11,754 bases of DNA from IMG/VR virus record IMGVR_UViG_2671181100_000003, positions 1 through 11,754 of that record; one strand, written 5' to 3'. The notes beneath the pieces are model-generated. The model had not been told where the DNA came from. It worked only from the letters and a program-made list of their open reading frames with translations, and made no database searches. The position numbers were made by a program, and so were the translations under genes. This DNA is from a virus (taxonomy: Duplodnaviria > Heunggongvirae > Uroviricota > Caudoviricetes). This document shows positions 1-11,754 of the stretch, in pieces (the first letter of the stretch is position 1; each line of letters begins with the position of its first letter).

Positions 1-179
1 ACACGCCCTTCGTTCTGCCAGAGCCTGAGCCATTTGAAAATAACATTATCATTGACGCCATTTTCACGTGCAATCTGTGCAACACAAGCTCCAGGTTGTG
101 ATGCCAGTTCCACCATACGAAGTTTGAATTCATTCGAATAGTTTTTACGAGGTTCTTTTCGCCAGTCCTGTAATTCCAT
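1..179 (-). CDS. IS-type transposase OrfA-like HTH protein, N-terminal fragment (frame runs off the left window edge)
   Basis: Minus-strand ATG at 179-177 opens a frame that continues to position 1. Translation MELQDWRKEPRKNYSNEFKLRMVELASQPGACVAQIARENGVNDNVIFKWLRLWQNEGRV shows the OrfA-type helix-turn-helix pattern of IS3-family (IS2-like) or IS66-family transposases (EFK..V.....PG..V..IAR..GV......W.....EG). Absent from the ORF track because it is truncated by the window edge. A possible element terminus (minus-strand TGACCGCCG, plus 244-252) lies ~70 bp upstream of the ATG. Confidence 0.4.
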   Translation of the reverse strand, partial: MELQDWRKEPRKNYSNEFKLRMVELASQPGACVAQIARENGVNDNVIFKWLRLWQNEGR

Positions 180-193
180 ACTTAGATGTCCGT

Positions 194-430
194 CTATATC
201 AGATGGGCGTCTAAGTTACCAATTCTCGTCTGATGGCTACATACGGCGGTCAGTTTACGCTTACGTTCAGTTGACACTGGTATTACTTTGTTTTCCTGTG
301 CTGCACATTTAGCTTCAAGCGCATCGAATTTACGCACCAGGTATTCAGCATCTGTTTCATTTACTTTCAGATCTCGCGGTACACATCTCCCACGAAGAAA
401 CCCTTCCATTTCGAAAACATTCATGCGCAT
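194..430 (-). CDS. Small hypothetical protein (76-78 aa) downstream of yfdR-like gene; 3' end possibly altered by the adjacent IS-like element
   Basis: ORF-track frame. Its start overlaps the yfdR-like stop (ATGA at 421-424), suggesting translational coupling with the likely start at 424. No recognisable motif. If the IS-like element ends near 252, the last ~19 codons would be IS-derived. Confidence 0.35.
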   Translation of the reverse strand: MRMNVFEMEGFLRGRCVPRDLKVNETDAEYLVRKFDALEAKCAAQENKVIPVSTERKRKLTAVCSHQTRIGNLDAHLI

Positions 431-957
431 TTGCGTAACTCCGATAACTCGTTAAAGCGTTCCATAAACATCCCGTAGGCATGGCCCGGTGCCAGTGGAA
501 TCACGTTGAACATCTCTGTTGCCGGGATACCTTCCAGTACAGGCCAGAAAGAGCCATCATCAAGCCCGAGATCGCGGCGTTCGGTTGCCAGCATGATGAG
601 ATCGGCATATTTCACGGGCGTACTCATAACTGGGGGTAACCCGTATTTCTCACGGATTACGGCGTCTATTTTTTCTTCCATTTGTTTATAGTCAGGAAGA
701 AGGCGTTTCAGTGGTGCGGGAATGTCCTGGCAATACGCTTCTGTTGCATCATGCATTAACGCTTCAAAAGCAAATTCCTGCGGCACCAGCTGGCTGCAAA
801 GAACCGCATGTTGGGCGACGCTGTAGAAGTGCGAAAGATGACCGGCAAAGCGACAGATATTTGAAAGGGAAACCGCGATATCGTTAATATCGATGTCGTC
901 TTTATTTATCCTGTCATAATAAAAATGCTTCCCGGAAAAAGTTTTAATAAATGACAT
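421..957 (-). CDS. yfdR: HD-domain metal-dependent phosphohydrolase (YfdR-like, putative 5'-deoxynucleotidase)
   Basis: ORF-track frame 421..984 trimmed to the ATG at 957 (MSFIKTF...), which has GGAG ~6 nt upstream, giving 178 aa. HD signature residues are present (AQHAV and LMHDATEAY). Length and sequence match my recollection of the CPS-53 prophage protein YfdR. Confidence 0.75.
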   Translation of the reverse strand: MSFIKTFSGKHFYYDRINKDDIDINDIAVSLSNICRFAGHLSHFYSVAQHAVLCSQLVPQEFAFEALMHDATEAYCQDIPAPLKRLLPDYKQMEEKIDAVIREKYGLPPVMSTPVKYADLIMLATERRDLGLDDGSFWPVLEGIPATEMFNVIPLAPGHAYGMFMERFNELSELRKCA

Positions 958-1052
958 TTTGTTCTCCACGTATATGCGCTGCACCGCGCTGAATTCTGGT
1001 AAAAAGAATCCCTCACCATCCGGCGATTATTGAGTAAATTACGTTTCCATAA

Positions 1053-1070
1053 ATGCCCCCGCAGGGACAT
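1053..1070 (-). terminator. Weak hairpin between yfdQ-like and yfdR-like genes (possible attenuator or partial terminator)
   Basis: Imperfect inverted repeat ATGCCCC/GGGACAT with a 4-nt loop, followed on the minus strand by UUUAUGG. Not a canonical U-tract. Confidence 0.2.
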
Positions 1071-1084
1071 TTGCAGTAATGAAA

Positions 1085-1909
1085 TCAGGCGGTGAAAGTG
1101 CCAATAAAGGTTTCTACTTTGCTGTCCTTGAATTTCTCAACAAGCAGATCACGAAATTCGTTAGCCATTTCTTCCTGCACCGCCTCCAGCTGAATAATGC
1201 GCAGAACCAGTACAGGACGATCGCCAGTGATAATACTGAGGCGTAATTTAAACGGACGTTCTTTCAGACCTTCAAACGGAACGCATTTAAATTCAAATGC
1301 CACTGGCATAATGTCTTTGGTTTTCGCTTCGACAGACTCCATCAGAGAGCGTTTGCCGCTGAAGTCATTGTCTTCAAAATCAGCGGTCTGGTTTGCTTCA
1401 ATCGTGATTTTACGGACAGCCGCAGCCGCTTTTGTTGCCTGAATAGCGTCACCATTAGCATCAAAGCCCACAAGGTAGTCGGCCCAGTCTTCAATCCATT
1501 CTGCTAGTGACTTCTGGGAGTTACGCTCGCCGTTAACAGACAACAGAGCAGAGAACGGTGCTGTCTTTTTCAGTTTGAGTGTGGCGGTGTTATCTGCGTG
1601 ACCTGGTTCATCAATAGTACCTAGGTTAAGCACACTGACGGCACGCATATTATCAGCATCGATAAAGCAGCGGGTGCCTTCATCTGCAAGATCTTTAGAA
1701 TAACGGGTAAAATCATCGATGCTGGCAGTGGAAAGCGCACCACGGAAACGGAAGCGATTTAAATTAAATTTTTCCAGATCATGAATGCGGAAATTCTCAG
1801 GCAATGCCACAGCATCGGCACCAATCTTACTGATAATTTCATTAACACCCTGAGCAGAAATAAGGGCATGGATTTGATTAATTGCGGTTGCGTCTAAGTT
1901 CTGAGACAT
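1085..1909 (-). CDS. yfdQ: DUF2303-family phage early protein (YfdQ-like), function unknown
   Basis: 274-aa ORF with GAGGA 5 nt upstream of the ATG. Length and sequence ([21 protein letters not shown]...) match my recollection of YfdQ from prophage CPS-53. Confidence 0.75.
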
Positions 1910-1974
1910 AATAAGTCCTCACTATATAAAGATATTCAGTGATGAGATAAATAATCAGTTAATTAAAAACGATA

Positions 1975-2337
1975 TTAACGACCTGCTGCGCGGAGTTTTC
2001 CGTCAGGTTCACCGGCAAGAGTCAGCAACTGTCCCTGGTCTTCCTGCAGAATAGTCAGGCGACCACCGCGATTGACATACATCGGCGTTTCGGTGGTGTC
2101 TTCTTCGGAAATTTTCCCGCGGTTAGTCGGGCGAACATATGAGAGTTTGTGTTTGATTTTCACTCGGTTCTCATCAAACGGTTCGATTTCTAGGTTGAGC
2201 GAGACCTTACCTTTGGTTTTCGTGTTCATCACACCGGAAGCGACTTCACTGAGAACTGCGCCGATTTTGGTTTCAAATACGCCGCCGTCCAGCTCCCCGA
2301 TAAATGCCTGCACATCAGTACTGCGTTCGCTAGCCAT
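1975..2337 (-). CDS. yfdP: YfdP-like early protein (120 aa), function unknown
   Basis: ORF-track frame 1975..2655 trimmed to the internal ATG at 2337 (MASERSTDVQ...), which has GAGGAG ~7 nt upstream. The 106 upstream codons are P/G/R-rich read-through of GC-rich non-coding DNA. Confidence 0.65.
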   Translation of the reverse strand: MASERSTDVQAFIGELDGGVFETKIGAVLSEVASGVMNTKTKGKVSLNLEIEPFDENRVKIKHKLSYVRPTNRGKISEEDTTETPMYVNRGGRLTILQEDQGQLLTLAGEPDGKLRAAGR

Positions 2338-2385
2338 TTTGCTGCTCCTCATCATATCGACCCTGCAAGGTCGGTTAGTTTCTCC

Positions 2386-2666
2386 ACAAAACAGAGAAGA
2401 ACACCTGCGGTGACTGCCGCCCGGATGGATTGGGTTATGAGCCCGTCGTCCGGTGATGCTCTTCTCTGTTTTGTAAAAAGGACGGTACCAGCCGGAAGCA
2501 AGGGTACAAGCTGGTACCGCCAAGACTACACACAGCATAAAGTTGTGGTGCCGGGTGCCTCCCGGTGCCTGGCGAAGGTTGCACACCAGGCGGGTGGGTA
2601 TCCACAGAAGGTCGACTGTCAGCCTCAACCTTAACCCGCGTGCGCTGAGCCGCATTCACCACAACG
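2386..2666. other. GC-rich non-coding stretch with nested perfect inverted repeats (candidate structured leader RNA or regulatory element of the leftward early operon)
   Basis: Perfect inverted repeats: 15 bp (2386-2400 ACAAAACAGAGAAGA / 2460-2474), 10 bp (2483-2492 CGGTACCAGC / 2510-2519), 9 bp (2542-2550 GTTGTGGTG / 2657-2665), 7 bp (2575-2581 / 2627-2633), plus short GC hairpins at 2551-2565 and 2567-2591. ORFs open in several frames here encode P/G/R-rich, non-protein-like sequence. Confidence 0.3.
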
Positions 2667-2806
2667 CTAAGGATTCTCTCTGGTTGAAAATACTTAGCTG
2701 TTATGTGCCTGCTTTTAGCCACATCAGGCGAGGTGGACCTAGTTATTCCCCAACAACAAGGATTCGGTTAATCTGGATATCCCCAACAACAATAAGAGTA
2801 TTCAAT

Positions 2807-3322
2807 GTGATCGCTGAATTAACGGCAGCAATGACGGCTATTCGTGAAATCGCCCAGATTGCAAAACTAATGAACGAGGCAAAAACTCAAGCTGAAGTAA
2901 ATGCGGCTATTGGTGAGCTGAACTCAAAGCTTGCGTCTATTCAGCGCGAATGCGTGTCTCTCGTTGAACTGCTGGGCTCTTATCAAGAAATAAATGCTTC
3001 TCTCAAAGCTAAAATTGCAGAATTCGAAAACTTTGAGGCTCAGACGGAAGGCTATATCCTTAACCAACTTGAGTCGGGTACTTTTGTATACTCGAAGGAG
3101 GTAATCGTGAACGGTGACAGCATAACCATGCATCTTTGCCCAAAATGTTTTGGACAAAAGATAGTATCGATACTTCAACCATTCCCGGTTAGCGAAGATG
3201 AGCTTTTTCATAAAAGCAGGTGCCTCCACTGTGAAAATAAGTTTCTGATGAATAAAAATCCAGATTACGTATCGCCTCCATCCATTGAGGAGTTGGCCAG
3301 AAAACTTAACGGCAATCTGTAG
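2807..3322 (+). CDS. Coiled-coil protein with C-terminal CxxC...CxxC zinc-ribbon (accessory gene in the immunity region, function unknown)
   Basis: ORF-track frame 2543..3322 trimmed to GTG 2807 (AAGAG 8 nt upstream) or ATG 2831. The N-terminal ~80 aa are heptad-like and A/E/K/L-rich; the C-terminus carries CPKCF and CLHCENK ~24 aa apart. GC is ~42% against ~52-55% in the replication genes. Convergent with the repressor, own terminator downstream. Confidence 0.55.
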   Translation: MIAELTAAMTAIREIAQIAKLMNEAKTQAEVNAAIGELNSKLASIQRECVSLVELLGSYQEINASLKAKIAEFENFEAQTEGYILNQLESGTFVYSKEVIVNGDSITMHLCPKCFGQKIVSILQPFPVSEDELFHKSRCLHCENKFLMNKNPDYVSPPSIEELARKLNGNL

Positions 3323-3347
3323 ATTGCTACTGTTGTGGATATCCAGA

Positions 3348-3360
3348 TTGTTAAAGAGCG
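3348..3360 (-). promoter_or_regulatory. boxA-like element (minus-strand CGCTCTTTAACAA), candidate nut-type antitermination site
   Basis: Minus-strand 13-mer CGCTCTTTAACAA matches the boxA consensus (rrn boxA TGCTCTTTAACAA; lambda nut boxA CGCTCTTA...) as I recall it. It is flanked by hairpins at 3362-3378 and 3312-3327 and lies downstream of a candidate leftward promoter at 3468-3496. Confidence 0.35.
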
Positions 3361-3361
3361 A

Positions 3362-3384
3362 AGCGTCCTGTAGGGCGCTTTTTT
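3362..3384 (+). terminator. Rho-independent terminator of the coiled-coil/zinc-ribbon gene
   Basis: Stem AGCGTCC / GGGCGCT (7 bp, one G-U) with loop TGTA, followed by TTTTTT at 3379-3384, ~40 nt after the stop codon at 3320-3322. Confidence 0.5.
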
Positions 3385-3465
3385 GTTGCTAACGAATCAT
3401 CCTGGACTTCATATGCCCCAGGCGGCTACTTCGTGGGCGTCCTGCCTGTTCGTTATCTTTGATAT

Positions 3466-3553
3466 AAAATCTAACTTAACTTAGCTATTATGGCAAGAGA
3501 AAACACCAAACTTTTCTTAGTTCGGTGCCTTAGTTAGAGAAGAGAGGTCTTAG
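3466..3553 (-). promoter_or_regulatory. Candidate left operator/promoter (OL/PL-like): leftward promoter flanked by CTTAG half-sites
   Basis: On the minus strand: -35 TTGCCA (plus 3491-3496), 17-bp spacer, -10 TAGATT (plus 3468-3473). CTTAG occurs four times within 3480-3553 (3480, 3516, 3529, 3549), the same pentamer that forms the operators between the repressor and cro. Confidence 0.3.
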
Positions 3554-4176
3554 AGTTCGTATTGAACTCCTTTGACTACACCAATGATAAGGCAATTACC
3601 ATTGATAGGGATGTTGGGATACCGAGGATTTAATGGCACTAAAAACTTTTGAGGGCCATCGATGACTAATTTTTTTACTGTAGCTTCGTTTGTTCCATCA
3701 AGTCGAGCGATGACTATTTTTCCATGACGAGGTTCTGCATCTGGATCTACAATCACTGTTGCGCCTTCTGGTATTGTTGGGAGGCCATTAGGGTTAGTCA
3801 TGGAGTCACCTTTAACCTCTAATGCAAATGAGTTATCACCAACCTTTAATGATGTATCTACCCACTTGTCCACTTCACTAAACACTTCTGCTGCCCTGCA
3901 CTCAGTAAACTGCCCAGCCTGAACCCACGATATTACAGGAACTCTGCGCATGTTTGTGACGAGTTTGCCTTCAAACTCAGCACCATAAAGAATGTAATCT
4001 ATTGACGTATTGAAGAACTTCGCTAATTTCGAAAGTGCCTCCCCACCAGGGGTATTGATGTCTTTCTCCCAGTACCCCACAGCAACGTCGCTTACTCCAC
4101 AAAATTTACCCAATTCTTTCTGGGACGTTCTGGTAACTCTTCTCAGAGCTTTTATACGCTGACCAACCGTTTCCAT
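3550..4176 (-). CDS. Phage repressor, cI/LexA-type (N-terminal HTH + C-terminal S24 autopeptidase domain)
   Basis: 208 aa. N-terminal HTH (QKELGKFCGVSDVAVGYWEKD), candidate Ala-Gly cleavage site (VQAGQF), S24 catalytic motif GDSM and Lys in TVKKL. Divergent from a cro-like gene across an operator region. Confidence 0.9.
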   Translation of the reverse strand: METVGQRIKALRRVTRTSQKELGKFCGVSDVAVGYWEKDINTPGGEALSKLAKFFNTSIDYILYGAEFEGKLVTNMRRVPVISWVQAGQFTECRAAEVFSEVDKWVDTSLKVGDNSFALEVKGDSMTNPNGLPTIPEGATVIVDPDAEPRHGKIVIARLDGTNEATVKKLVIDGPQKFLVPLNPRYPNIPINGNCLIIGVVKGVQYEL

Positions 4177-4195
4177 AGGAGCACCATTTCTTTAA

Positions 4196-4266
4196 TTGCT
4201 AAGTAATCTTAGTTTTTATTGACCAAAGATAGATTTGTAATTAGCATCTAACAAAACTTAGTTTGG
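4196..4266. promoter_or_regulatory. OR-like operator/promoter region between repressor and cro
   Basis: Inverted half-sites CTAAG-TAAT-CTTAG (4199-4212), perfect palindrome AAACTTAGTTT (4254-4264), CTTAGTTT repeated at 4208 and 4257. Rightward promoter candidate -35 TTGACC (4219-4224), 17-bp spacer, -10 TAGCAT (4242-4247), upstream of the cro ATG at 4274. Confidence 0.5.
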
Positions 4267-4273
4267 AGAGCGT

Positions 4274-4474
4274 ATGACAACTGACGATATCGAAAGCTAC
4301 TTCGGCAGTATTGAGAAAGTTGCTGCTTTTTTCGGCATAACAACTGAAGCCGTTTATCAGTGGCGAAACCGTCCGGGCCAGTTAATTCCAAAAGGACGTG
4401 CAGCAGAAGCTGCATATAGAACTTGCGGACGGTTGCCATTTAAACCTGAGCTTTATGAAAAATCTAATGGATAA
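4274..4474 (+). CDS. cro: Cro-type repressor (P22 Cro-like)
   Basis: 66 aa; DIESYFGSIEKVAAFFGITTEAVYQW resembles P22 Cro (DVIDHFGTQRAVAKALGISDAAVSQW). Divergent from the repressor; GGAGAG upstream. Confidence 0.8.
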   Translation: MTTDDIESYFGSIEKVAAFFGITTEAVYQWRNRPGQLIPKGRAAEAAYRTCGRLPFKPELYEKSNG

Positions 4475-5063
4475 ATCGATTAACAGAAACCACAGAACGA
4501 TGAGGCTAACCGTGGGTAAGCATCACTGGAAAGTAGAAAAACAGCCTGAGTGGTACGTGAAAGCTGTCAGAAAAACTATCGCAGCGTTGCCGGGTGGTTA
4601 CGCTGAAGCTGCTGACTGGCTGGATGTAACAGAGAACGCATTATTTAACCGCCTTCGTGCCGATGGCGATCAGATTTTCCCGCTGGGATGGGCAATGATT
4701 TTGCAACGTGCTGGTGGAACTCACTTCATTGCTGACGCTGTGGCGCAGTCTGCAAATGGCGTCTTTGTGTCTCTTCCTGATGTCGAGGATGTGGACAACG
4801 CCGATATCAACCAACGCCTGCTGGAAGTCATTGAACAGATCGGCAGTTATTCAAAACAGATTCGTTCAGCAATTGAAGACGGTGTAGTGGAACCGCATGA
4901 GAAGACAGCAATTAACGATGAGCTGTACCTCTCAATTTCGAAGCTGCAGGAGCATGCAGCACTGGTCTACAAAATCTTTTGCGTTTCAGAAAGTAGTGAC
5001 GCCCGCGAGTGTGCAGCTCCGGGCGCCGTGGCGTGTCGTGACTGTGGAGAAACTAACGCATGA
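4455..5063 (+). CDS. CII-position early regulatory protein (CII/CP76-like by position; start uncertain)
   Basis: ORF-track frame 4398..5063. The GTG at 4398 has no usable SD spacing and overlaps cro by 77 nt; ATG 4455 or ATG 4467 (overlapping the cro stop) are likelier starts. About 200 aa, first gene after cro. Family assignment is by position and vague recollection only. Confidence 0.45.
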
Positions 5064-5398
5064 ACAGTTTAACAACACACTACCGTCGCTCGCAACTGAT
5101 TGCGCTTCCTGTACCGGGTGGAAAAGCGAAGGTGGAGTATTGCTATGCAGTAAATGTACCAGGTGACAGGGAAATTGTAACCCACAGCTTTGCAGAGTGG
5201 GCTGTGGGTGATTTCAACCGGCAGAAGGAGACAGTCCTTTGCGACAAGTTAACCGCTGGTTCAAAGATCACTACGGAGTGCCCGTCAGAGTCATTCGTTG
5301 GGAGCCGGAAACACAACGTGTTATCTACCTCCGCGAAGGCTATGAGCATGAGTGCTTCAGCCCGCTCGAACAGTTTCGTCGTAAATTCAGGGAAATAG
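5060..5398 (+). CDS. Hypothetical protein (112 aa as called); only the N-terminal ~55 aa look protein-like, possible frameshifted or overlapping gene
   Basis: ATGA overlap with the preceding stop (5060-5063). The N-terminal part ([52 protein letters not shown]) looks coding; the C-terminal ~50 aa are S/A-rich low complexity and overlap a better-looking frame (see 5239..5418). Confidence 0.3.
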
Positions 5399-5418
5399 AG
5401 GTCGGTCATGAGCACTAA
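5239..5418 (+). CDS. Small hypothetical protein (59 aa) from a TTG start; alternatively the C-terminal half of a frameshifted gene starting at 5060
   Basis: Not in the ORF track (no ATG). AAGGAG at 5225-5230, 8 nt before TTG 5239. Translation [59 protein letters not shown] is compositionally protein-like. Stop at 5416-5418 overlaps the O-like start. Confidence 0.3.
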
Positions 5419-6364
5419 ATTAACCGGCTATGTATGGGATGGTTGCGCTGCATCAGGCATGAAATTATCCAGCGTGGCAATTATGGCCCGCCTGGCTGAT
5501 TTCAGTAATGACGAAGGTGTGTGCTGGCCATCAATTGAAACCATTGCCCGCCAGATTGGCGCGGGGATGAGTACCGTCAGAACGGCTATCGCACGGCTGG
5601 AAGCAGAAGGCTGGTTAACGCGTAGGGCGCGTCGCCAGGGTAACCGCAATGCGTCGAATGTTTATCAGCTTAACGTTGCGAAGCTTCAGGCAGCGGCATT
5701 TTCTCAACTGTCAGATTCTGACCCGTCAAAATCTGACGCATCAAAATCTGACGCATCAAAATCTGACCCGTCAAAATTTGATGCGTCGAAATCTGGCAAA
5801 AAAGCGGGTTTTCACCCGTCAGAATCTGGTGGGGATCCGTCAGTAAAATCAAAACATGATCCGTCAGATAAAAAAACTTCTCGTCCGGACGCTTCGCAAC
5901 CGGACACGCAGACGGCTGAACAGGATTTTTTAACTCGCCATCCTGATGCGGTTGTATTCAGCCCTAAAAAGCGCCAGTGGGGGACGCAGGATGATTTGAC
6001 CTGCGCACAGTGGCTCTGGAAAAAAATCATCGCCCTGTACGAGCATGCCGCCGAATGTGACGGCGAGGTGGTTCGTCCCAAAGAACCGAACTGGACAGCC
6101 TGGGCAAACGAAATTCGCCTGATGTGTGTGCAGGATGGTCGTACTCATAAACAAATCTGCGAGATGTACAGCCGCGTCAGTCGCGATCCGTTCTGGTGCC
6201 GTAACGTGCTCAGCCCGTCGAAGCTGCGGGAAAAATGGGATGAGCTTTCCCTGCGCTTATCGCCGTCCGTCAGCACGTACACCGAAAAACGCGAAGACCC
6301 GTACTTCAAAGCCAGTTACGACAACGTGGACTACAGCCAGATCCCGGCAGGATTCAGGGGGTGA
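5408..6364 (+). CDS. Replication initiator, lambda O-like (N-terminal HTH DNA-binding domain, repeat linker, C-terminal domain)
   Basis: 318 aa, GAGGT 5 nt upstream. N-terminal HTH (SSVAIMARLADFSNDEGVCWPSIETIARQIGAGMSTVRTAIARLEAEGWL) is typical of phage replication initiators. An internal tandem-repeat block encodes (S/P)KSDA pentapeptides, like the iteron-encoded linker of lambda O. Position after cro/CII. Confidence 0.7.
   Translation: MSTKLTGYVWDGCAASGMKLSSVAIMARLADFSNDEGVCWPSIETIARQIGAGMSTVRTAIARLEAEGWLTRRARRQGNRNASNVYQLNVAKLQAAAFSQLSDSDPSKSDASKSDASKSDPSKFDASKSGKKAGFHPSESGGDPSVKSKHDPSDKKTSRPDASQPDTQTAEQDFLTRHPDAVVFSPKKRQWGTQDDLTCAQWLWKKIIALYEHAAECDGEVVRPKEPNWTAWANEIRLMCVQDGRTHKQICEMYSRVSRDPFWCRNVLSPSKLREKWDELSLRLSPSVSTYTEKREDPYFKASYDNVDYSQIPAGFRG
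5711..5800. repeat. Six tandem 15-bp repeats inside the O-like gene: candidate replication-origin iterons
   Basis: Units TCAGATTCTGACCCG / TCAAAATCTGACGCA (x2) / TCAAAATCTGACCCG / TCAAAATTTGATGCG / TCGAAATCTGGCAAA. Each junction forms the dyad CGTCA-AAATC-TGACG. Degenerate copies and an A-rich stretch follow to ~5880. Confidence 0.5.
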
Positions 6365-6366
6365 TC

Positions 6367-6855
6367 ATGAGTCTTTTGAATGACGTTCAGAAATTCATTG
6401 AAGCCCATCCGGGGTGTACTTCCGGAGACATTGCGGATGCTTTTGCAGGTTACTCACGACAGCGCGTTCTGCAGTCAGCAAGCAAGTTACGTCAGAGTGG
6501 GCGTGTGGCTCACCGTTGTGAAGGGGATACACGCAGACATTTCCCGCGGCTGACTGAGATACCGCAGGAGCCGGAACCGCAACCAGTTCGTGAATCCAGA
6601 CCTGTGCGCAATTTCTATGTCGGCACTAACGATCCCCGGGTGATTTTGTGCCTGACCCGCCAGGCGGAAGAACTGGAGTCCAGGGGCTTATACCGTCGTG
6701 CTGCAACGGTGTGGATGGCGGCATTCCGTGAAAGCCACTCCCAGCAAGAGCGAAACAATTTTCTTGCGCGTCGTGAGCGGTGTTTACGGAAAAGCAGCAA
6801 GCGCGCTGTATCGGGTGAAGAGTGGTATCTGTCAGGGAATTACGTGGGGGCTTAA
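6367..6855 (+). CDS. Putative transcriptional regulator: N-terminal winged-helix-like region plus PerC-like C-terminal motif
   Basis: ORF-track frame 6361..6855 trimmed to ATG 6367 (GGGGG 5 nt upstream, overlapping the O-like stop). The C-terminal motif AEELESRGLYRRAATVWMAAF resembles the PerC/Pch activator signature as I recall it. The size (162-164 aa) matches my recollection of YfdN. Confidence 0.55.
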   Translation: MSLLNDVQKFIEAHPGCTSGDIADAFAGYSRQRVLQSASKLRQSGRVAHRCEGDTRRHFPRLTEIPQEPEPQPVRESRPVRNFYVGTNDPRVILCLTRQAEELESRGLYRRAATVWMAAFRESHSQQERNNFLARRERCLRKSSKRAVSGEEWYLSGNYVGA

Positions 6856-7181
6856 TGACGACGTTAACTCAATGCCAGCAGCAGGTGCTGGATATGCTGA
6901 TTTCTTATCAGAAAGAACGTGGCTTCCCGCCAACCAATCAGGAGGTGGCAACCATGCTGGGATACCGTTCAGTGAATGCAGCGGTGGAGCATCTTCGCGC
7001 ACTGGAGAAAAAAGGCGTCATCACGATAAAGCGTGGCGTGGCCCGGGGCATCACGCTTCATACCGCGGTGAAGGACGACGACAGCGAGGCGGCCGGGATT
7101 ATCCGCGCACTGCTTGCTGGTGAGGAAAACGCCAGGCTGCGTGCAGCCCACTGGTTACATGAGAGGGGCCTGAAAGTATGA
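6855..7181 (+). CDS. LexA DNA-binding-domain-like protein lacking the S24 peptidase domain
   Basis: ORF-track frame trimmed to ATG 6855 (TAATG overlap with the upstream stop; GGGGG upstream). LTQCQQQVLDMLISYQKERGFPPTNQEVATMLGYRSVNAAVEHLRALEKKGVITIKRGVARGITL aligns by eye with the LexA N-terminus ([65 protein letters not shown]). The 108-aa product stops before any protease domain. Confidence 0.75.
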   Translation: MTTLTQCQQQVLDMLISYQKERGFPPTNQEVATMLGYRSVNAAVEHLRALEKKGVITIKRGVARGITLHTAVKDDDSEAAGIIRALLAGEENARLRAAHWLHERGLKV

Positions 7182-7567
7182 AGCTGATCCTGCCTTTTCC
7201 GCCCAGCGTGAACACGCACTGGCGACACCCCAACAAAGGGGCGTTTGCTGGTAAGAGCCTGATAAGCGCGGCGGGGCGAAAATTCCAGAGCGCGGCGTGC
7301 GCAGCAATAGTTGAGCAGTTACGTCGTCTGCCAAAACCAACGTCGGCACCTGCTTCAGTGGAGATCGTGTTGTTTCCTCCGGATAACCGGATCCGCGATC
7401 TGGACAACTATAACAAGGCGCTGTTTGACGCCCTGACCCACGCGGGTGTGTGGGAAGACGACAGTCAGGTGAAAAGAATGCTGGTGGAGTGGGGACCGGT
7501 TATCCCGGAAGGGAAGGTCGAGATCACTATCAGTAAGTACGAGAAACCGGCGGGTGCAGCCGCCTGA
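7178..7567 (+). CDS. rusA: RusA-family Holliday junction resolvase
   Basis: 129 aa with ATGA overlap to the upstream gene. Motifs LPFPPSVN, DLDNYNKALFDALT and GVWEDDSQV match the RusA family. Confidence 0.85.
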   Translation: MKLILPFPPSVNTHWRHPNKGAFAGKSLISAAGRKFQSAACAAIVEQLRRLPKPTSAPASVEIVLFPPDNRIRDLDNYNKALFDALTHAGVWEDDSQVKRMLVEWGPVIPEGKVEITISKYEKPAGAAA

Positions 7568-7586
7568 TTAAGAGGAGAAACGAAGT

Positions 7587-8384
7587 ATGAATAATCTGAT
7601 GGTTATTGATGGTATTGAAGTTCGTCGTGATGCTTATGGGCGTTACAGCCTGAACGATCTGCACAGGGCTGCCGGTTCTCTGGATAAACATAAGCCTGCA
7701 TTCTGGCTCCGCAATGAGCAAACTGAACGTTTAATAAGCGAGTTGCAGATTTGCAACTCGGTCAATATAGAGCCAGTTAACGTTATTCGTGGAGGAAATA
7801 ACCAGGGGACGTATGTCTGCAAAGAACTGGTGTATGCCTATGCAATGTGGATCAGCCCGTCATTCCATCTGAAGGTGATCCGTACTTTCGATATGGTAAC
7901 CAGCACACCGGAAAAATTATCCGGGCAGGCTGCTGACAAGATGCAGGCTGGCGTGATCCTGCTGGACTTTATGCGCCGGGAGTTAAACCTGTCTAACTCT
8001 TCAGTGCTTGGTGCCTGTCAGAAACTCCAGGAGGCTGTTGGCTTACCGAATCTGGCACCGCGCTATGCCATTGATGCTCCTGCTGACGCGCCTGATGGCT
8101 CAAGCCGCCCCACGCTGTCACTGAGTGCACTGCTGAAGCAGTATGGTATCCGCCTGACAGCTAATCAGGCATATCACCAGATGGTGAAGCTGGGGATCGT
8201 CGAGCAGCGCGAACGATACAGCCGTACCGCGATTAACAACATCAAAAAATTCTGGTCACTGACAGCGAAAGGCTGCATGTTCGGCAAGAACATCACCAGT
8301 CCCGCAAATCCGCGCGAGACGCAGCCGCATTTCTTCGAATCCCGATTCCCTGAGCTGTTAAAGCTGCTCGATACCGTTCATTGA
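7587..8384 (+). CDS. KilA-N domain protein (N-terminal KilA-N DNA-binding domain, uncharacterised C-terminal domain)
   Basis: 265 aa with strong RBS AAGAGGAGAAA. N-terminal YSLNDLHRAAG...KPAFWLRNEQTERLI...IRGGNNQGTYVCKELVYAYAMWISPSFHLKVIRTFD fits the KilA-N fold. Confidence 0.8.
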   Translation: MNNLMVIDGIEVRRDAYGRYSLNDLHRAAGSLDKHKPAFWLRNEQTERLISELQICNSVNIEPVNVIRGGNNQGTYVCKELVYAYAMWISPSFHLKVIRTFDMVTSTPEKLSGQAADKMQAGVILLDFMRRELNLSNSSVLGACQKLQEAVGLPNLAPRYAIDAPADAPDGSSRPTLSLSALLKQYGIRLTANQAYHQMVKLGIVEQRERYSRTAINNIKKFWSLTAKGCMFGKNITSPANPRETQPHFFESRFPELLKLLDTVH

Positions 8385-8385
8385 G

Positions 8386-9381
8386 GTGACCGTGAGAGCG
8401 CTACTGACCCCTGAAATTGCCCCGCGTATGGGGATCGTATTGTTCAGGCCAGGTTCAGAGCTGATGCCCCTGTTTATGCAGGGCCGTGTTCTGCTGGAGC
8501 CTGAGCCGGAGCGTTATTCATCTTTCGCCAGTGGTGCCGTTCCTGCGGCATCACAACCGCTGGCGGATGATCCTGCCGTTCTGGCCGTGTTCCGTAATGA
8601 GGCAGTGATTCGTCGTGCTGGTGGGGTGGAATGTCTTGAAAGCTGGTTACTTCGTGAAAAAGGCTGCCAGTGGCCTCATTCCGACTGGCACAGCGAGAAC
8701 ATGACCACAATGCGACACGCGCCGGGCGCAATCCGTCTGTGCTGGCACTGCGATAACCAGCTTCGCGATCAGTTCACGGAACGGCTGGAATCAATGGCAA
8801 CGGATAACTGTGCCCGCTGGGTGTTGTCTGTTGTGCGTCGGGATCTCGGTTTTGATGATAGTCACGTTGTGACAATGCCGGAACTGTGCTGGTGGCTGAT
8901 TCGTAATGATCTGGCAGATGCCTTACCGGAAAGTGCAGCCCGTAAGGCACTGAGATTACCGAAGCCTGTTGTGCCGTCTGTCACCCGGGAAAGTGACCTT
9001 GTGCCTTCGGTTCCTGCCACCAGCATCATCCAGGATAAGGCGAAAAAGGTGCTGGCGCTGAAAGTGGATCCGGAGTCGCCGGAGTCTTTTATGTTACGCC
9101 CAAAACGCCGCCGCTGGGTTAATGAAAAGTACACGCGCTGGGTTAAGACACAGCCGTGTGCATGTTGTGGAAAGCCTGCTGATGATCCCCACCACCTGAT
9201 AGGTCACGGTCAGGGTGGAATGGGTACAAAAGCGCATGACCTCTTTGTGTTGCCTTTGTGCAGAAAGCATCACGACGAGCTGCATGCGGATACCGTGGCA
9301 TTTGAAGAGAAGTATGGCTCCCAACTGGAGCTGATATTTCGTTTTATCGATCGCGCGCTGGCGATTGGTGTGTTGGCCTGA
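8386..9381 (+). CDS. DUF968-like nin-region protein with C-terminal Cys/His-rich (HNH-like) motif
   Basis: 331 aa from GTG 8386 (start uncertain; internal ATG at 8428). C-terminal CACCGKPADDPHHLIGHG...LCRKHHDELH suggests a zinc-binding nuclease-like motif. Family assignment from memory of YdfU-like prophage proteins. Confidence 0.55.
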   Translation: MTVRALLTPEIAPRMGIVLFRPGSELMPLFMQGRVLLEPEPERYSSFASGAVPAASQPLADDPAVLAVFRNEAVIRRAGGVECLESWLLREKGCQWPHSDWHSENMTTMRHAPGAIRLCWHCDNQLRDQFTERLESMATDNCARWVLSVVRRDLGFDDSHVVTMPELCWWLIRNDLADALPESAARKALRLPKPVVPSVTRESDLVPSVPATSIIQDKAKKVLALKVDPESPESFMLRPKRRRWVNEKYTRWVKTQPCACCGKPADDPHHLIGHGQGGMGTKAHDLFVLPLCRKHHDELHADTVAFEEKYGSQLELIFRFIDRALAIGVLA

Positions 9382-9398
9382 TTTGGTGGAGAAAGTTG

Positions 9399-9764
9399 AT
9401 GCGTGATATTCAGATGGTTCTGGAGCGTTGGGGAGCATGGGCGGCGAGTGATAGTTCTGGAGTAGACTATTCGCCTATAGCTGCTGGGTTTAAGGGGCTT
9501 CTTCCCTACACAAGCAAAACACGTCAGGCTTGTTCAGATAGTGATGCATTAATTATTGAAGGTTGTCTTGCTCGTCTAAAGCAAAAAAAGCCAGATGAGC
9601 ACTCGCTGCTTGTGGCACATTATTTATACAGAATATCCAAGCGTAAGATTGCAAAGGTGCGTGGAAAGGATGAAAAATTGGTACGCATAGAAATACAACT
9701 AGCCGAAGGATTTATTGATGGTTGCCTTTCAATGTTGGATGTTAACCTTGAAATGGACGCTTAG
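9399..9764 (+). CDS. Late-gene antiterminator Q (small Q family)
   Basis: ORF-track frame 9396..9764 trimmed to ATG 9399 (GGAG 7 nt upstream). The N-terminal motif DIQMVLERWGAWAA...DYSPIAAGFKGLLP matches my recollection of the small antitermination-Q family. Last gene of the rightward early operon. Confidence 0.7.
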   Translation: MRDIQMVLERWGAWAASDSSGVDYSPIAAGFKGLLPYTSKTRQACSDSDALIIEGCLARLKQKKPDEHSLLVAHYLYRISKRKIAKVRGKDEKLVRIEIQLAEGFIDGCLSMLDVNLEMDA

Positions 9765-9770
9765 GGTTGC

Positions 9771-9800
9771 ACAGGTTGGCCCCATATGAGGCCAACCTGT
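9771..9800. other. Perfect 11-bp inverted repeat (hairpin) between convergent Q and membrane-protein genes
   Basis: ACAGGTTGGCC (9771-9781) / GGCCAACCTGT (9790-9800) with an 8-nt loop. It starts 7 nt after the Q stop and abuts the membrane-protein stop codon (9800-9802). No adjacent U-tract on either strand, so not a canonical intrinsic terminator. Confidence 0.4.
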
Positions 9801-10261
9801 CACAAGTGGGGGAAGATTTTTCGTAACACTAACCAACACCTTCCGAAGGTATATAGCGAAATTATAAGGGAGGATAAGCCTAACAGTATGAATAGGAAAT
9901 CAATAGGTTTGCCCGCAACAATAACATCATCTGGTAGAAACATCGCTATCAATGGAAATATACATGCGACGATGAGAGTTAACCCTGTTGAAAGTAATCG
10001 ATTTACCAGAGTTGGTAACACGTTGTTTTGCTTAAGGGCATTAATTGCTCCTTCCTTATCGCTGTTTGCACTACTAAATATAGATATTGCAGCCAGAACA
10101 AAACCAAACAGGATGCCTGATATAGTCGAGAGCACCCCCGCTGTTGTGAGTACGTCAGCATGCTTCATCGGTTTAAACAGTTTTGTCGCTGCATAGGTCA
10201 ACAGAATCCAGAGGACGCATTTCCAGAGAAAAGTGGCTAATTCTCTCATTGTGTCCTCCAT
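9800..10261 (-). CDS. Small integral membrane protein, four predicted TM helices (second gene of the two-gene cassette)
   Basis: 153-aa ORF; the likely start is the second ATG at 10249 (GGAGG 5 nt upstream), giving 149 aa. Four hydrophobic segments (~residues 10-28, 37-63, 85-109, 120-140) with short loops and no soluble domain. Separated by ~20 nt from the upstream 313-aa gene. Confidence 0.6.
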   Translation of the reverse strand: MEDTMRELATFLWKCVLWILLTYAATKLFKPMKHADVLTTAGVLSTISGILFGFVLAAISIFSSANSDKEGAINALKQNNVLPTLVNRLLSTGLTLIVACIFPLIAMFLPDDVIVAGKPIDFLFILLGLSSLIISLYTFGRCWLVLRKIFPHL

Positions 10262-10270
10262 GCTTGGTTA

Positions 10271-11212
10271 TTAGTCTCTGCTAGCGAGCTCATACTGTGC
10301 AAGATAGTTCGCGTTATCAATTTTAGCAGATATCATCGCCGTTCTGATATCAGAATCGGATGGATAACCGCTTTTGACAATGATTGTCTTTGTACTGACC
10401 AATACTTGGTCAAGTAGACTTTTGGGCGTTCTATTGGATGGCTCTGTTACATCAATTTTTTTAATTTTTAGACCTCCAGAACCTTTTGGAAAAAGTTCAA
10501 GTAGTTCCTTAATAGCATCGGTGACAGAAGTTTTTAGATAGTTAAAACCTTGTTTTTTCGGGCGAATCCGACCTCGCATATTTAATCTTAGATGCGACCC
10601 GCCCATACCAACAACCATGTCAATAATTTCATTAGCTAAAGGGTTTTTAATCTTATAATTAGCTTTGTTAAAGTTTCTTGGAGCAGCAACTATAAGATCG
10701 AAACTACGTAGGATATTTCCGTCCTCAAGCAGTTCCTTCATGCTCTCTTGTTTCCAAATGGCTTCAAAAGTGACGCTTTTTAAATCAGTTTTGTTATACA
10801 AAATGAATGCCAGATCATTTACTTTGGGCCCTATATGGTTGAGGGTCATAGCTAATAAATCCGTTTCGTAGTAATAGATAAAATATGTTCTTTCAACTAC
10901 AGAATCTTTATCATTTAAAGGAATTGTTCTCTCACTACCTGTAGCATCCTCGATGAACGGTAGTAGGCATTCCCTTCTCCACGATACGTAACCAAAGTAA
11001 CATTGCAGTGTGGTATCTTTTTGAAGAATAACTAACTTTAACCCTCGATTTGGGGTGTCTGTTGTGTAAGTTATTGGAAAAGTTACAGTATCTGCTGTGG
11101 TCATTTGCTCAAAGGCTAGTTTTGCAGCAGATGTGCCATCTTTTTTGCTTCCATTACCAGTGAAAAAACCAACTCTCACTCGCCTAGTTTTATTCTTATT
11201 TTCTGTACTCAT
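10271..11212 (-). CDS. Uncharacterised 313-aa soluble protein (first gene of the two-gene cassette)
   Basis: Long ORF with no recognisable catalytic motif by eye (no Walker A, no clear nucleotidyltransferase GS...DxD). K/N/T-rich, GC ~35-42%. Opposite in orientation to all flanking phage genes. Confidence 0.65.
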   Translation of the reverse strand: MSTENKNKTRRVRVGFFTGNGSKKDGTSAAKLAFEQMTTADTVTFPITYTTDTPNRGLKLVILQKDTTLQCYFGYVSWRRECLLPFIEDATGSERTIPLNDKDSVVERTYFIYYYETDLLAMTLNHIGPKVNDLAFILYNKTDLKSVTFEAIWKQESMKELLEDGNILRSFDLIVAAPRNFNKANYKIKNPLANEIIDMVVGMGGSHLRLNMRGRIRPKKQGFNYLKTSVTDAIKELLELFPKGSGGLKIKKIDVTEPSNRTPKSLLDQVLVSTKTIIVKSGYPSDSDIRTAMISAKIDNANYLAQYELASRD

Positions 11213-11227
11213 TATCGATCCGAAATA

Positions 11228-11257
11228 ATTTTAGCAACCGTGTGAAAAATACAACAA
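11228..11257 (-). promoter_or_regulatory. Candidate promoter of the two-gene cassette
   Basis: Minus-strand -10 TAAAAT (plus 11228-11233) with -35 TTGTTG (plus 11252-11257, 18-bp spacer) or TTGTAT (15-bp spacer). Leader to the ATG would be under 15 nt and the RBS is weak, so confidence is low. Confidence 0.2.
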
Positions 11258-11334
11258 AAAAAAGAGGAAATCATTAGCGCGGTCCGCAAAAAACATTGTA
11301 ATCTGTTAAGAGTGGTTACTTCGCCACACAACTT

Positions 11335-11359
11335 AAACCCGCCGCTGAGCGGTTTTTTT
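11335..11359 (+). terminator. Hairpin plus T7 tract (intrinsic terminator-like) on the plus strand upstream of the small ORF at 11481
   Basis: AAACCCGCCGCTGAGCGGTTTTTTT: stem CCGC/GCGG (extendable with a bulge) then seven T. Would terminate plus-strand transcripts that have crossed the cassette antisense; could be a tR'-like site. Confidence 0.35.
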
Positions 11360-11409
11360 GTACCTGTAAACCTGGTGCAGTACAGTAAACACGCTGGTGG
11401 TCGTGAATA

Positions 11410-11436
11410 CTGGCTTTTTATCTTGCTGGCTTTTTA
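11410..11436. repeat. Direct repeat CTGGCTTTTTA x2 (16-bp period) upstream of the 11481 ORF
   Basis: Exact 11-bp copies at 11410-11420 and 11426-11436; candidate regulator binding sites or part of a late promoter/qut region. Confidence 0.3.
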
Positions 11437-11480
11437 GACAAGAGTTATTGGTATGTCATGTTAACCAGAAGGGAAAAAAC

Positions 11481-11684
11481 ATGCTAAAACAGCAAGATAT
11501 GACAGAAACCGCCGCCGCAGTCCTTCATTTCTTACCTGCTGACAAGTGGGTAACGCCACGCATGATGACGAGAACTACCGGAGTAAGCGAAGCCCGGTGC
11601 CAGTTAATACTGACTCAGTTAGTTCTGGCGGGTCTGGCGAAGGATAACGGCGGGTACGGGAATAAATTCAGACGCTGCCAGTAA
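11481..11684 (+). CDS. Small hypothetical protein (67 aa), possibly winged-helix DNA-binding
   Basis: ORF-track frame 11397..11684 trimmed to ATG 11481 (AAGGGA 6 nt upstream). Translation MLKQQDMTETAAAVLHFLPADKWVTPRMMTRTTGVSEARCQLILTQLVLAGLAKDNGG looks like a small winged-helix regulator. Confidence 0.45.
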   Translation: MLKQQDMTETAAAVLHFLPADKWVTPRMMTRTTGVSEARCQLILTQLVLAGLAKDNGGYGNKFRRCQ

Positions 11685-11754
11685 TGGCGGTTTCCTGCTG
11701 TGAAAATGGGCGGCTGGTGGGTGTTGGTAGCACCTGCCAGCCATTCGCTCATGC
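11684..11754 (+). CDS. Possible start of a further gene (partial, runs off the right edge)
   Basis: ATG at 11684 overlaps the preceding stop (TAATG); the frame stays open to the window end (MAVSCCENGRLVGVGSTCQPFAH...). Too short to judge. Confidence 0.2.
   Translation, partial: MAVSCCENGRLVGVGSTCQPFAH

Follow-up and report, generated by a model that had tools for sequence, protein, structure and literature searches.

Insertion sequences of the IS66 family end in terminal inverted repeats of ~20-30 bp that begin 5'-GTAAGCG, and typically duplicate 8 bp of target DNA. The DDE transposase TnpC catalyzes their transposition, and TnpA and TnpB act as accessory proteins. Elements of the IS3 family have repeats with 5'-TG...CA-3' ends, an orfA/orfB arrangement with a programmed -1 frameshift, an rve-type DDE transposase, and target duplications of 3-5 bp. 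The catalogued IS66 element closest to the DNA described here is ISEc23, and its organization can be read from a full 2,532-bp copy in E. coli EcPF18 (NZ_CP054219.1 3409842-3412373; locus L002 1733-4264). This copy contains tnpA (141 aa), tnpB (annotated 'IS66 family accessory protein') and the gene of a 537-aa 'IS66-like element ISEc23 family transposase', in that order; inverted repeats of 24 nt, GTAAGCGTCAACGGAGCACCGTAT and GTAAGCGTAAACTGACCGCCGTAT, form its ends, and on both sides the 8 bp GTTCAGCG are directly repeated. A second full 2,532-bp copy, in GE3 (NZ_CP012376.1; locus L005 5850-8381), is 100% identical to that of EcPF18, and it too is accompanied by an 8-bp duplication, AAAAATGC. 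Of the family features, the GTAAGCG repeats and the 8-bp duplication could be verified on these full copies; a literature search for ISEc23 and for IS66-family features returned incidental mentions only.

We examined a stretch of viral DNA of 11,754 nucleotides, referred to throughout as the window, which from position 265 onward is an SfV/SfIV-like lambdoid prophage. Window 265-11754 aligns with uninterrupted prophages in several E. coli chromosomes, and the uninterrupted thrW prophage of E. coli strain 1283 agrees with these 11,490 bp at all but 5 positions. The strain 1283 prophage is located at tRNA-Thr (thrW), adjoining proA, and its leftward arm contains, in order, yfdP, yfdQ, yfdR, the gene of the 120-aa protein WP_001242749.1, yfdT, an HTH/excisionase-like gene and the integrase gene. 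All 5 differences are inside yfdQ and within 154 bp of each other (1322, 1346, 1351, 1370 and 1475), a cluster that, in place of scattered mutation, suggests a small patch of recombination when the two sequences are aligned. The YfdQ allele of the window is very widespread (39,222 blocks), and the ten places listed all lack the IS described below.

The left edge of the window is occupied by the end of an insertion sequence. Window 1-264 shows 0 mismatches to full 2,532-bp ISEc23 copies in E. coli and is identical to the last 264 bp of the copy in EcPF18. When window 1-270 was used as a megablast query, a match was obtained in 3,102 of 5,426 complete E. coli genomes, and the annotation beneath these matches is consistently 'IS66-like element accessory protein TnpA'. 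On the minus strand, a frame opens with an ATG at 179 and runs off the left edge, which is why it is absent from the list of open reading frames; the 59 codons that remain visible (3-179; MELQDWRKEPRKNYSNEFKLRMVELASQPGACVAQIARENGVNDNVIFKWLRLWQNEGR) agree fully with the beginning of the annotated TnpA WP_000422741.1 and represent the first 59 of the 141 codons of this IS66-family accessory protein, with its N-terminal helix-turn-helix. An initial annotation of the window had recognized an OrfA-type transposase HTH in this frame, and Pfam agrees, with matches of the translation to HTH_Tnp_1 (E=3e-12, 47 bits against a cut-off of 24.1) and HTH_23 (E=1.3e-7); the full-length 141-aa TnpA of EcPF18 gives the same matches. 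Given the gene order, 24-nt repeats and 8-bp duplication of the EcPF18 copy, the 264-bp identity places the element in ISEc23 and in the IS66 family, and every IS66 feature that can be sought in the window is present. By homology, then, window 1-264 (minus strand) is the tnpA-proximal, or IRL, end of ISEc23, with the rest of the element past the left edge; the name rests on the PGAP labels 'ISEc23 family' carried by copies with 0 mismatches in these 264 nt.

The initial annotation had instead proposed an element of the IS3 family, with TGACCGCCG at 252 as the beginning of its inverted repeat. This string does occur on the minus strand, at plus 244-252, its TG start resembles IS3 ends, and an OrfA-like protein with an HTH_Tnp_1 domain is also typical of IS3. 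It is not the end of the element, however: it corresponds to positions 13-21 of the 24-nt terminal repeat, and ISEc23 homology continues to 264. The IRL (241-264, minus strand, GTAAGCGTAAACTGACCGCCGTAT) starts GTAAGCG at 264, and its complementarity to GTAAGCGTCAACGGAGCACCGTAT, the repeat at the opposite end of the full copy, is 83% over 24 nt. This repeat stops exactly where homology to the uninterrupted prophage starts (264/265), so that base 264 is the true IS terminus. The genes downstream of tnpA, moreover, encode TnpB_IS66 and DDE_Tnp_IS66 proteins rather than an rve-type OrfB, and the target duplication is 8 bp. None of the three IS3 hallmarks we looked for (repeat ends, downstream genes and duplication length) was found. 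With the assignment refuted by the genes of the full copies, by those of a metagenome contig described below (PF05717 and DDE_Tnp_IS66) and by the terminal repeats, there is next to no chance that the element belongs to IS3 rather than to IS66.

Between the IRL and the start of tnpA lies an untranslated leader (180-240, minus strand) in which an inverted-repeat search located an imperfect hairpin with 16-nt arms (180-195 / 201-216) that immediately precedes the ATG; the same hairpin is at L002 4180-4195 / 4201-4216 in the EcPF18 copy. As a candidate regulatory hairpin, 180-216 is not unusual, the fold of 160-264 being no better than that of shuffled sequence (z=-0.33), and we assign it no function. 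Neither a sigma-70 nor a terminator consensus was matched in window 1-600.

On the other side of the IS terminus is a phage gene that occupies the position between yfdR and yfdT in the early-left operon. Its upstream neighbor in the same leftward operon, yfdR, encodes a 5'-deoxynucleotidase and is intact (421-957, minus strand; L004 457-993 in the strain 1283 annotation). In its uninterrupted form the gene encodes a 120-aa protein, homologous to SfV orf30 and to WP_001242749.1 ('phage protein'), in which Pfam places DUF551 (PF04448) at residues 50-117 with E=2.7e-4 and 22.2 bits, for a cut-off of 22. The window retains only the 5' part of this gene, 55 codons plus 1 nt (265-430, minus strand), and pairwise alignment with the uninterrupted prophage breaks exactly at 264|265. 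What is left is a chimeric 78-aa ORF (194-430, minus strand) that, on alignment to the intact protein, is identical to it over residues 1-55 and then continues for 23 IS-derived residues, through the IRL and the tnpA leader, to a TAG stop (194-196) that precedes the tnpA ATG by 14 nt. That this ORF fuses an interrupted phage gene to IS codons had been foreseen in the initial annotation, and comparison with intact homologues bears it out, in that full-length homologues do not match across 252; the break proposed near 252 has to be moved to 264/265, and the estimate of ~19 IS-derived codons raised to 23. The 78-aa product has no Pfam match, DUF551 (PF04448) included, because the insertion removed the domain. 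On this alignment the ORF is a disrupted gene whose predicted translation is a pseudogene product that has lost DUF551.

The exact 78-aa protein is recorded only once elsewhere, on an ENA metagenome contig (ERZ27277667 k141_102581; 2,122 bp; locus L003) that overlaps the window with 534/534 positions identical, the junction included. This contig continues beyond the window edge into a complete tnpA, a complete tnpB (PF05717) and 321 aa of tnpC, in which Pfam identifies LZ_Tnp_IS66, zf-IS66 and DDE_Tnp_IS66. As the contig both shares the window junction and carries tnpA-tnpB-tnpC, the transposase body that the initial annotation had sought beyond the edge is present behind this junction; tnpB and tnpC (DDE_Tnp_IS66) also lie downstream of tnpA, in the part of the element outside the window, in the full copies of EcPF18 and GE3. 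The metagenome contig bears as well on whether the junction could be an artefact, created when an IS repeat read was chimerically joined to the end of a prophage contig. Contigs often break or misjoin at IS copies, and the junction is absent from complete genomes. Yet the identical junction was assembled independently in the ENA metagenome, and the break falls exactly at the IS terminus. In addition, a matching complementary junction with the 8-bp duplication exists in another assembly (see below), and no chimera would give rise to such a junction. We therefore consider an assembly artefact very improbable.

Simple insertion makes a specific prediction for the opposite junction: an ORF that starts from a TTG in the other inverted repeat and passes via the 8 bp of the target into residues 56-120 of the DUF551 protein. 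The predicted remnant ORF is 71 aa long and begins MTLTTELPPANES, and this exact protein was found as WP_072292462.1, encoded at the very start of the draft contig LOOH01000024.1 (E. coli, GCA_001575545.1). The contig opens with 18 nt of the other ISEc23 end, TGCTCCGTTGACGCTTAC, followed by AACTGAAC (L016 19-26) and then by TGCCACC... and the rest of the DUF551 gene. AACTGAAC is the reverse complement of window 265-272, so that the 8-bp target site, GTTCAGTT, touches the IS in both records: its two copies, one next to the IRL in the window and one next to the opposite IS end on LOOH01000024.1, make up the target-site duplication. In the uninterrupted gene GTTCAGTT occurs once. Both the second inverted repeat and the target-site duplication, which the initial annotation had suggested looking for, are thus accounted for on this contig. 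Past the remainder of the gene come yfdT, the excisionase-like gene, the integrase gene and thrW/proA; over the 3,008 bp that follow its opening, the contig does not differ from strain 1283, either in the uninterrupted left arm or in the thrW/proA flank. When the window and LOOH01000024.1 are spliced, with the IS and one of the 8-bp copies removed, the intact 363-bp gene is restored exactly.

These observations (a second IS end, the same 8 bp, an intact left arm and the thrW/proA flank) argue strongly for a simple insertion of ISEc23 into the DUF551 gene of an SfV-like prophage with duplication of 8 bp, rather than a decay boundary, and from the sequences compared we hold this with high confidence. 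The two half-junctions do come from different records, the window and the ENA metagenome contig for one and the NCBI draft contig for the other, and on this reading they would belong to one genome; each contig is broken at the IS, in the manner of short-read assemblies. The window itself stops 264 bp into the IS, and the rest of the element and the left junction are outside this molecule; the genome from which the window derives presumably carries the full IS and a left junction like that on LOOH01000024.1.

A different reading of the same edge, put forward in the initial annotation, is that the IS marks a rearrangement or a prophage-decay boundary. In that case an IS-mediated deletion or inversion would have left the far end of the DUF551 gene, together with yfdT, xis and int, either lost or elsewhere. 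IS copies do mediate deletions, inversions and similar rearrangements; the window ends inside the IS, with the far side unseen, and no complete E. coli genome has either junction. Set against this is the exact complementary junction on LOOH01000024.1, with the same 8 bp and a left arm that is intact up to thrW/proA: were the two halves unrelated, a second, independent insertion would have had to hit the identical site in the identical orientation. The prophage part of the window is, furthermore, essentially undecayed. The boundary reading is accordingly unsupported by the comparison, and we regard it as improbable.

The insertion allele is rare. Neither junction was found in any of the 5,426 complete E. 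coli genomes (0/5,426), and consequently no single contiguous record spans the whole insertion. Exact scans with a 40-mer across the window junction gave no match in GTDB species-representative genomes, JGI metagenomes or IMG/VR, and an exact scan for the predicted opposite junction was likewise negative in GTDB species representatives, JGI metagenomes and IMG/VR. BLAST with the composite predicted left junction against complete E. coli genomes returned no true match; the only record that covers 82% of it, from GE3, represents a different, independent ISEc23 insertion beside yfdR, with the duplication AAAAATGC. Sightings of the allele are limited to a single draft genome and a single metagenome contig.

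We propose that the locus arose when ISEc23 (2,532 bp; tnpA, tnpB, tnpC) transposed into codon 56 of the 120-aa DUF551 gene, part of the leftward early operon in an SfV/SfIV-like lambdoid prophage that adjoins proA at thrW. Integration duplicated the 8 bp GTTCAGTT and left the IS oriented with tnpA in the same direction as the leftward phage operon, and the phage protein is cut after residue 55 and extended by 23 IS-derived codons to the TAG. Because essentially nothing else has changed in the prophage part of the window, the insertion is, on sequence grounds, a recent event.

The position and orientation of the IS have possible consequences for both partners. As yfdT, the excisionase-like gene and int are separated from the early-left promoter by the 2.5-kb insert, the insertion may be polar on these three genes when they are transcribed from that promoter. 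Phage early-left transcripts, for their part, would be expected to read into tnpA. Two outcomes can be conceived, a prophage that is 'locked in', its excision genes being off the early-left transcript, and an SOS induction that leads to read-through, possibly with translational coupling, into tnpA; we think it rather unlikely that this full scenario holds, and if it did, read-through into tnpA would link transposition of ISEc23 to prophage induction. The allele offers a possible natural experiment on whether excision of an SfV-like prophage is blocked once an IS sits in its early-left operon.

Several other features of the prophage were observed in passing. Upstream of yfdP, the minus-strand frame at window 1975-2662 encodes 226 aa from an ATG at 2655; in an identical relative, RefSeq lists here a 120-aa YfdP (window 1975-2337) and an overlapping hypothetical pseudogene marked 'frameshifted' (window 2352-2662), and other relatives have a 182-aa YfdP. 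The gene model in window 1975-2662 is uncertain. Between the leftward early genes and the repressor gene, the plus strand carries a gene of 171 aa (2807-3322) with no PADLOC match and only a sub-threshold, coiled-coil-type match in Pfam. Two leftward genes, of 153 aa and 313 aa (9800-11212, minus strand), separate the rightward Q antiterminator gene (9396-9764) from the downstream late region, a position typical of 'moron' cargo; neither has a PADLOC match, and Pfam gives only a sub-threshold DUF4064 for the 153-aa gene.

The full copies elsewhere also offer a view of target choice. In EcPF18, the first six bases of the duplication GTTCAGCG (L002 1725-1732 and 4265-4272) are the same as those of the window target GTTCAGTT, and it is because of these six common bases that several genomes are 100% identical over window 1-270 despite carrying a different insertion, in a DUF5983 gene. 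GTTCAG, common to the two insertions, does not amount to a strict target preference, since the target of the third copy, AAAAATGC, lacks the motif. The GE3 copy adjoins the start of yfdR, in a related prophage that occupies another place on the chromosome, near yejO. With this independent insertion, ISEc23 has struck the same early-left operon at least twice.

In practical terms, the left edge of the window should be annotated as ISEc23 (IS66) with its end at 264, the 78-aa ORF as a disrupted DUF551 pseudogene and 265-272 as the target duplication, and the prophage should not be called decayed on present evidence. The rare insertion allele may be of use for marking a lineage, and beyond annotation its significance is small: ISEc23 is an already catalogued insertion sequence found here in an ordinary configuration, and what is rare is this particular insertion allele only.

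Set beside the known systems, the locus resembles the ISEc23 copies of EcPF18 and GE3 in all 264 of 264 nucleotides, in the start of tnpA, in the 24-nt IRL and in the length of the duplication (8 bp), and differs from them only in the insertion site, which for the window allele is in the DUF551 gene of an SfV-like prophage. The tnpA-tnpB-tnpC order of known ISEc23 copies is likewise retained on the contig that shares the window junction. With IS3-family elements it shares a DNA-binding protein that has HTH_Tnp_1 at its N terminus and whose gene adjoins the left end, whereas the ISEc23 repeats lack TG...CA ends, the downstream genes are TnpB_IS66 and DDE_Tnp_IS66, and the duplication is 8 bp. 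Finally, window 265-1200 is 99.7% identical to SfV and SfIV, the serotype-converting phages of Shigella flexneri; in these phages, and in the E. coli thrW relatives, the 120-aa DUF551 gene is intact, whereas the copy in the window is split by the IS.
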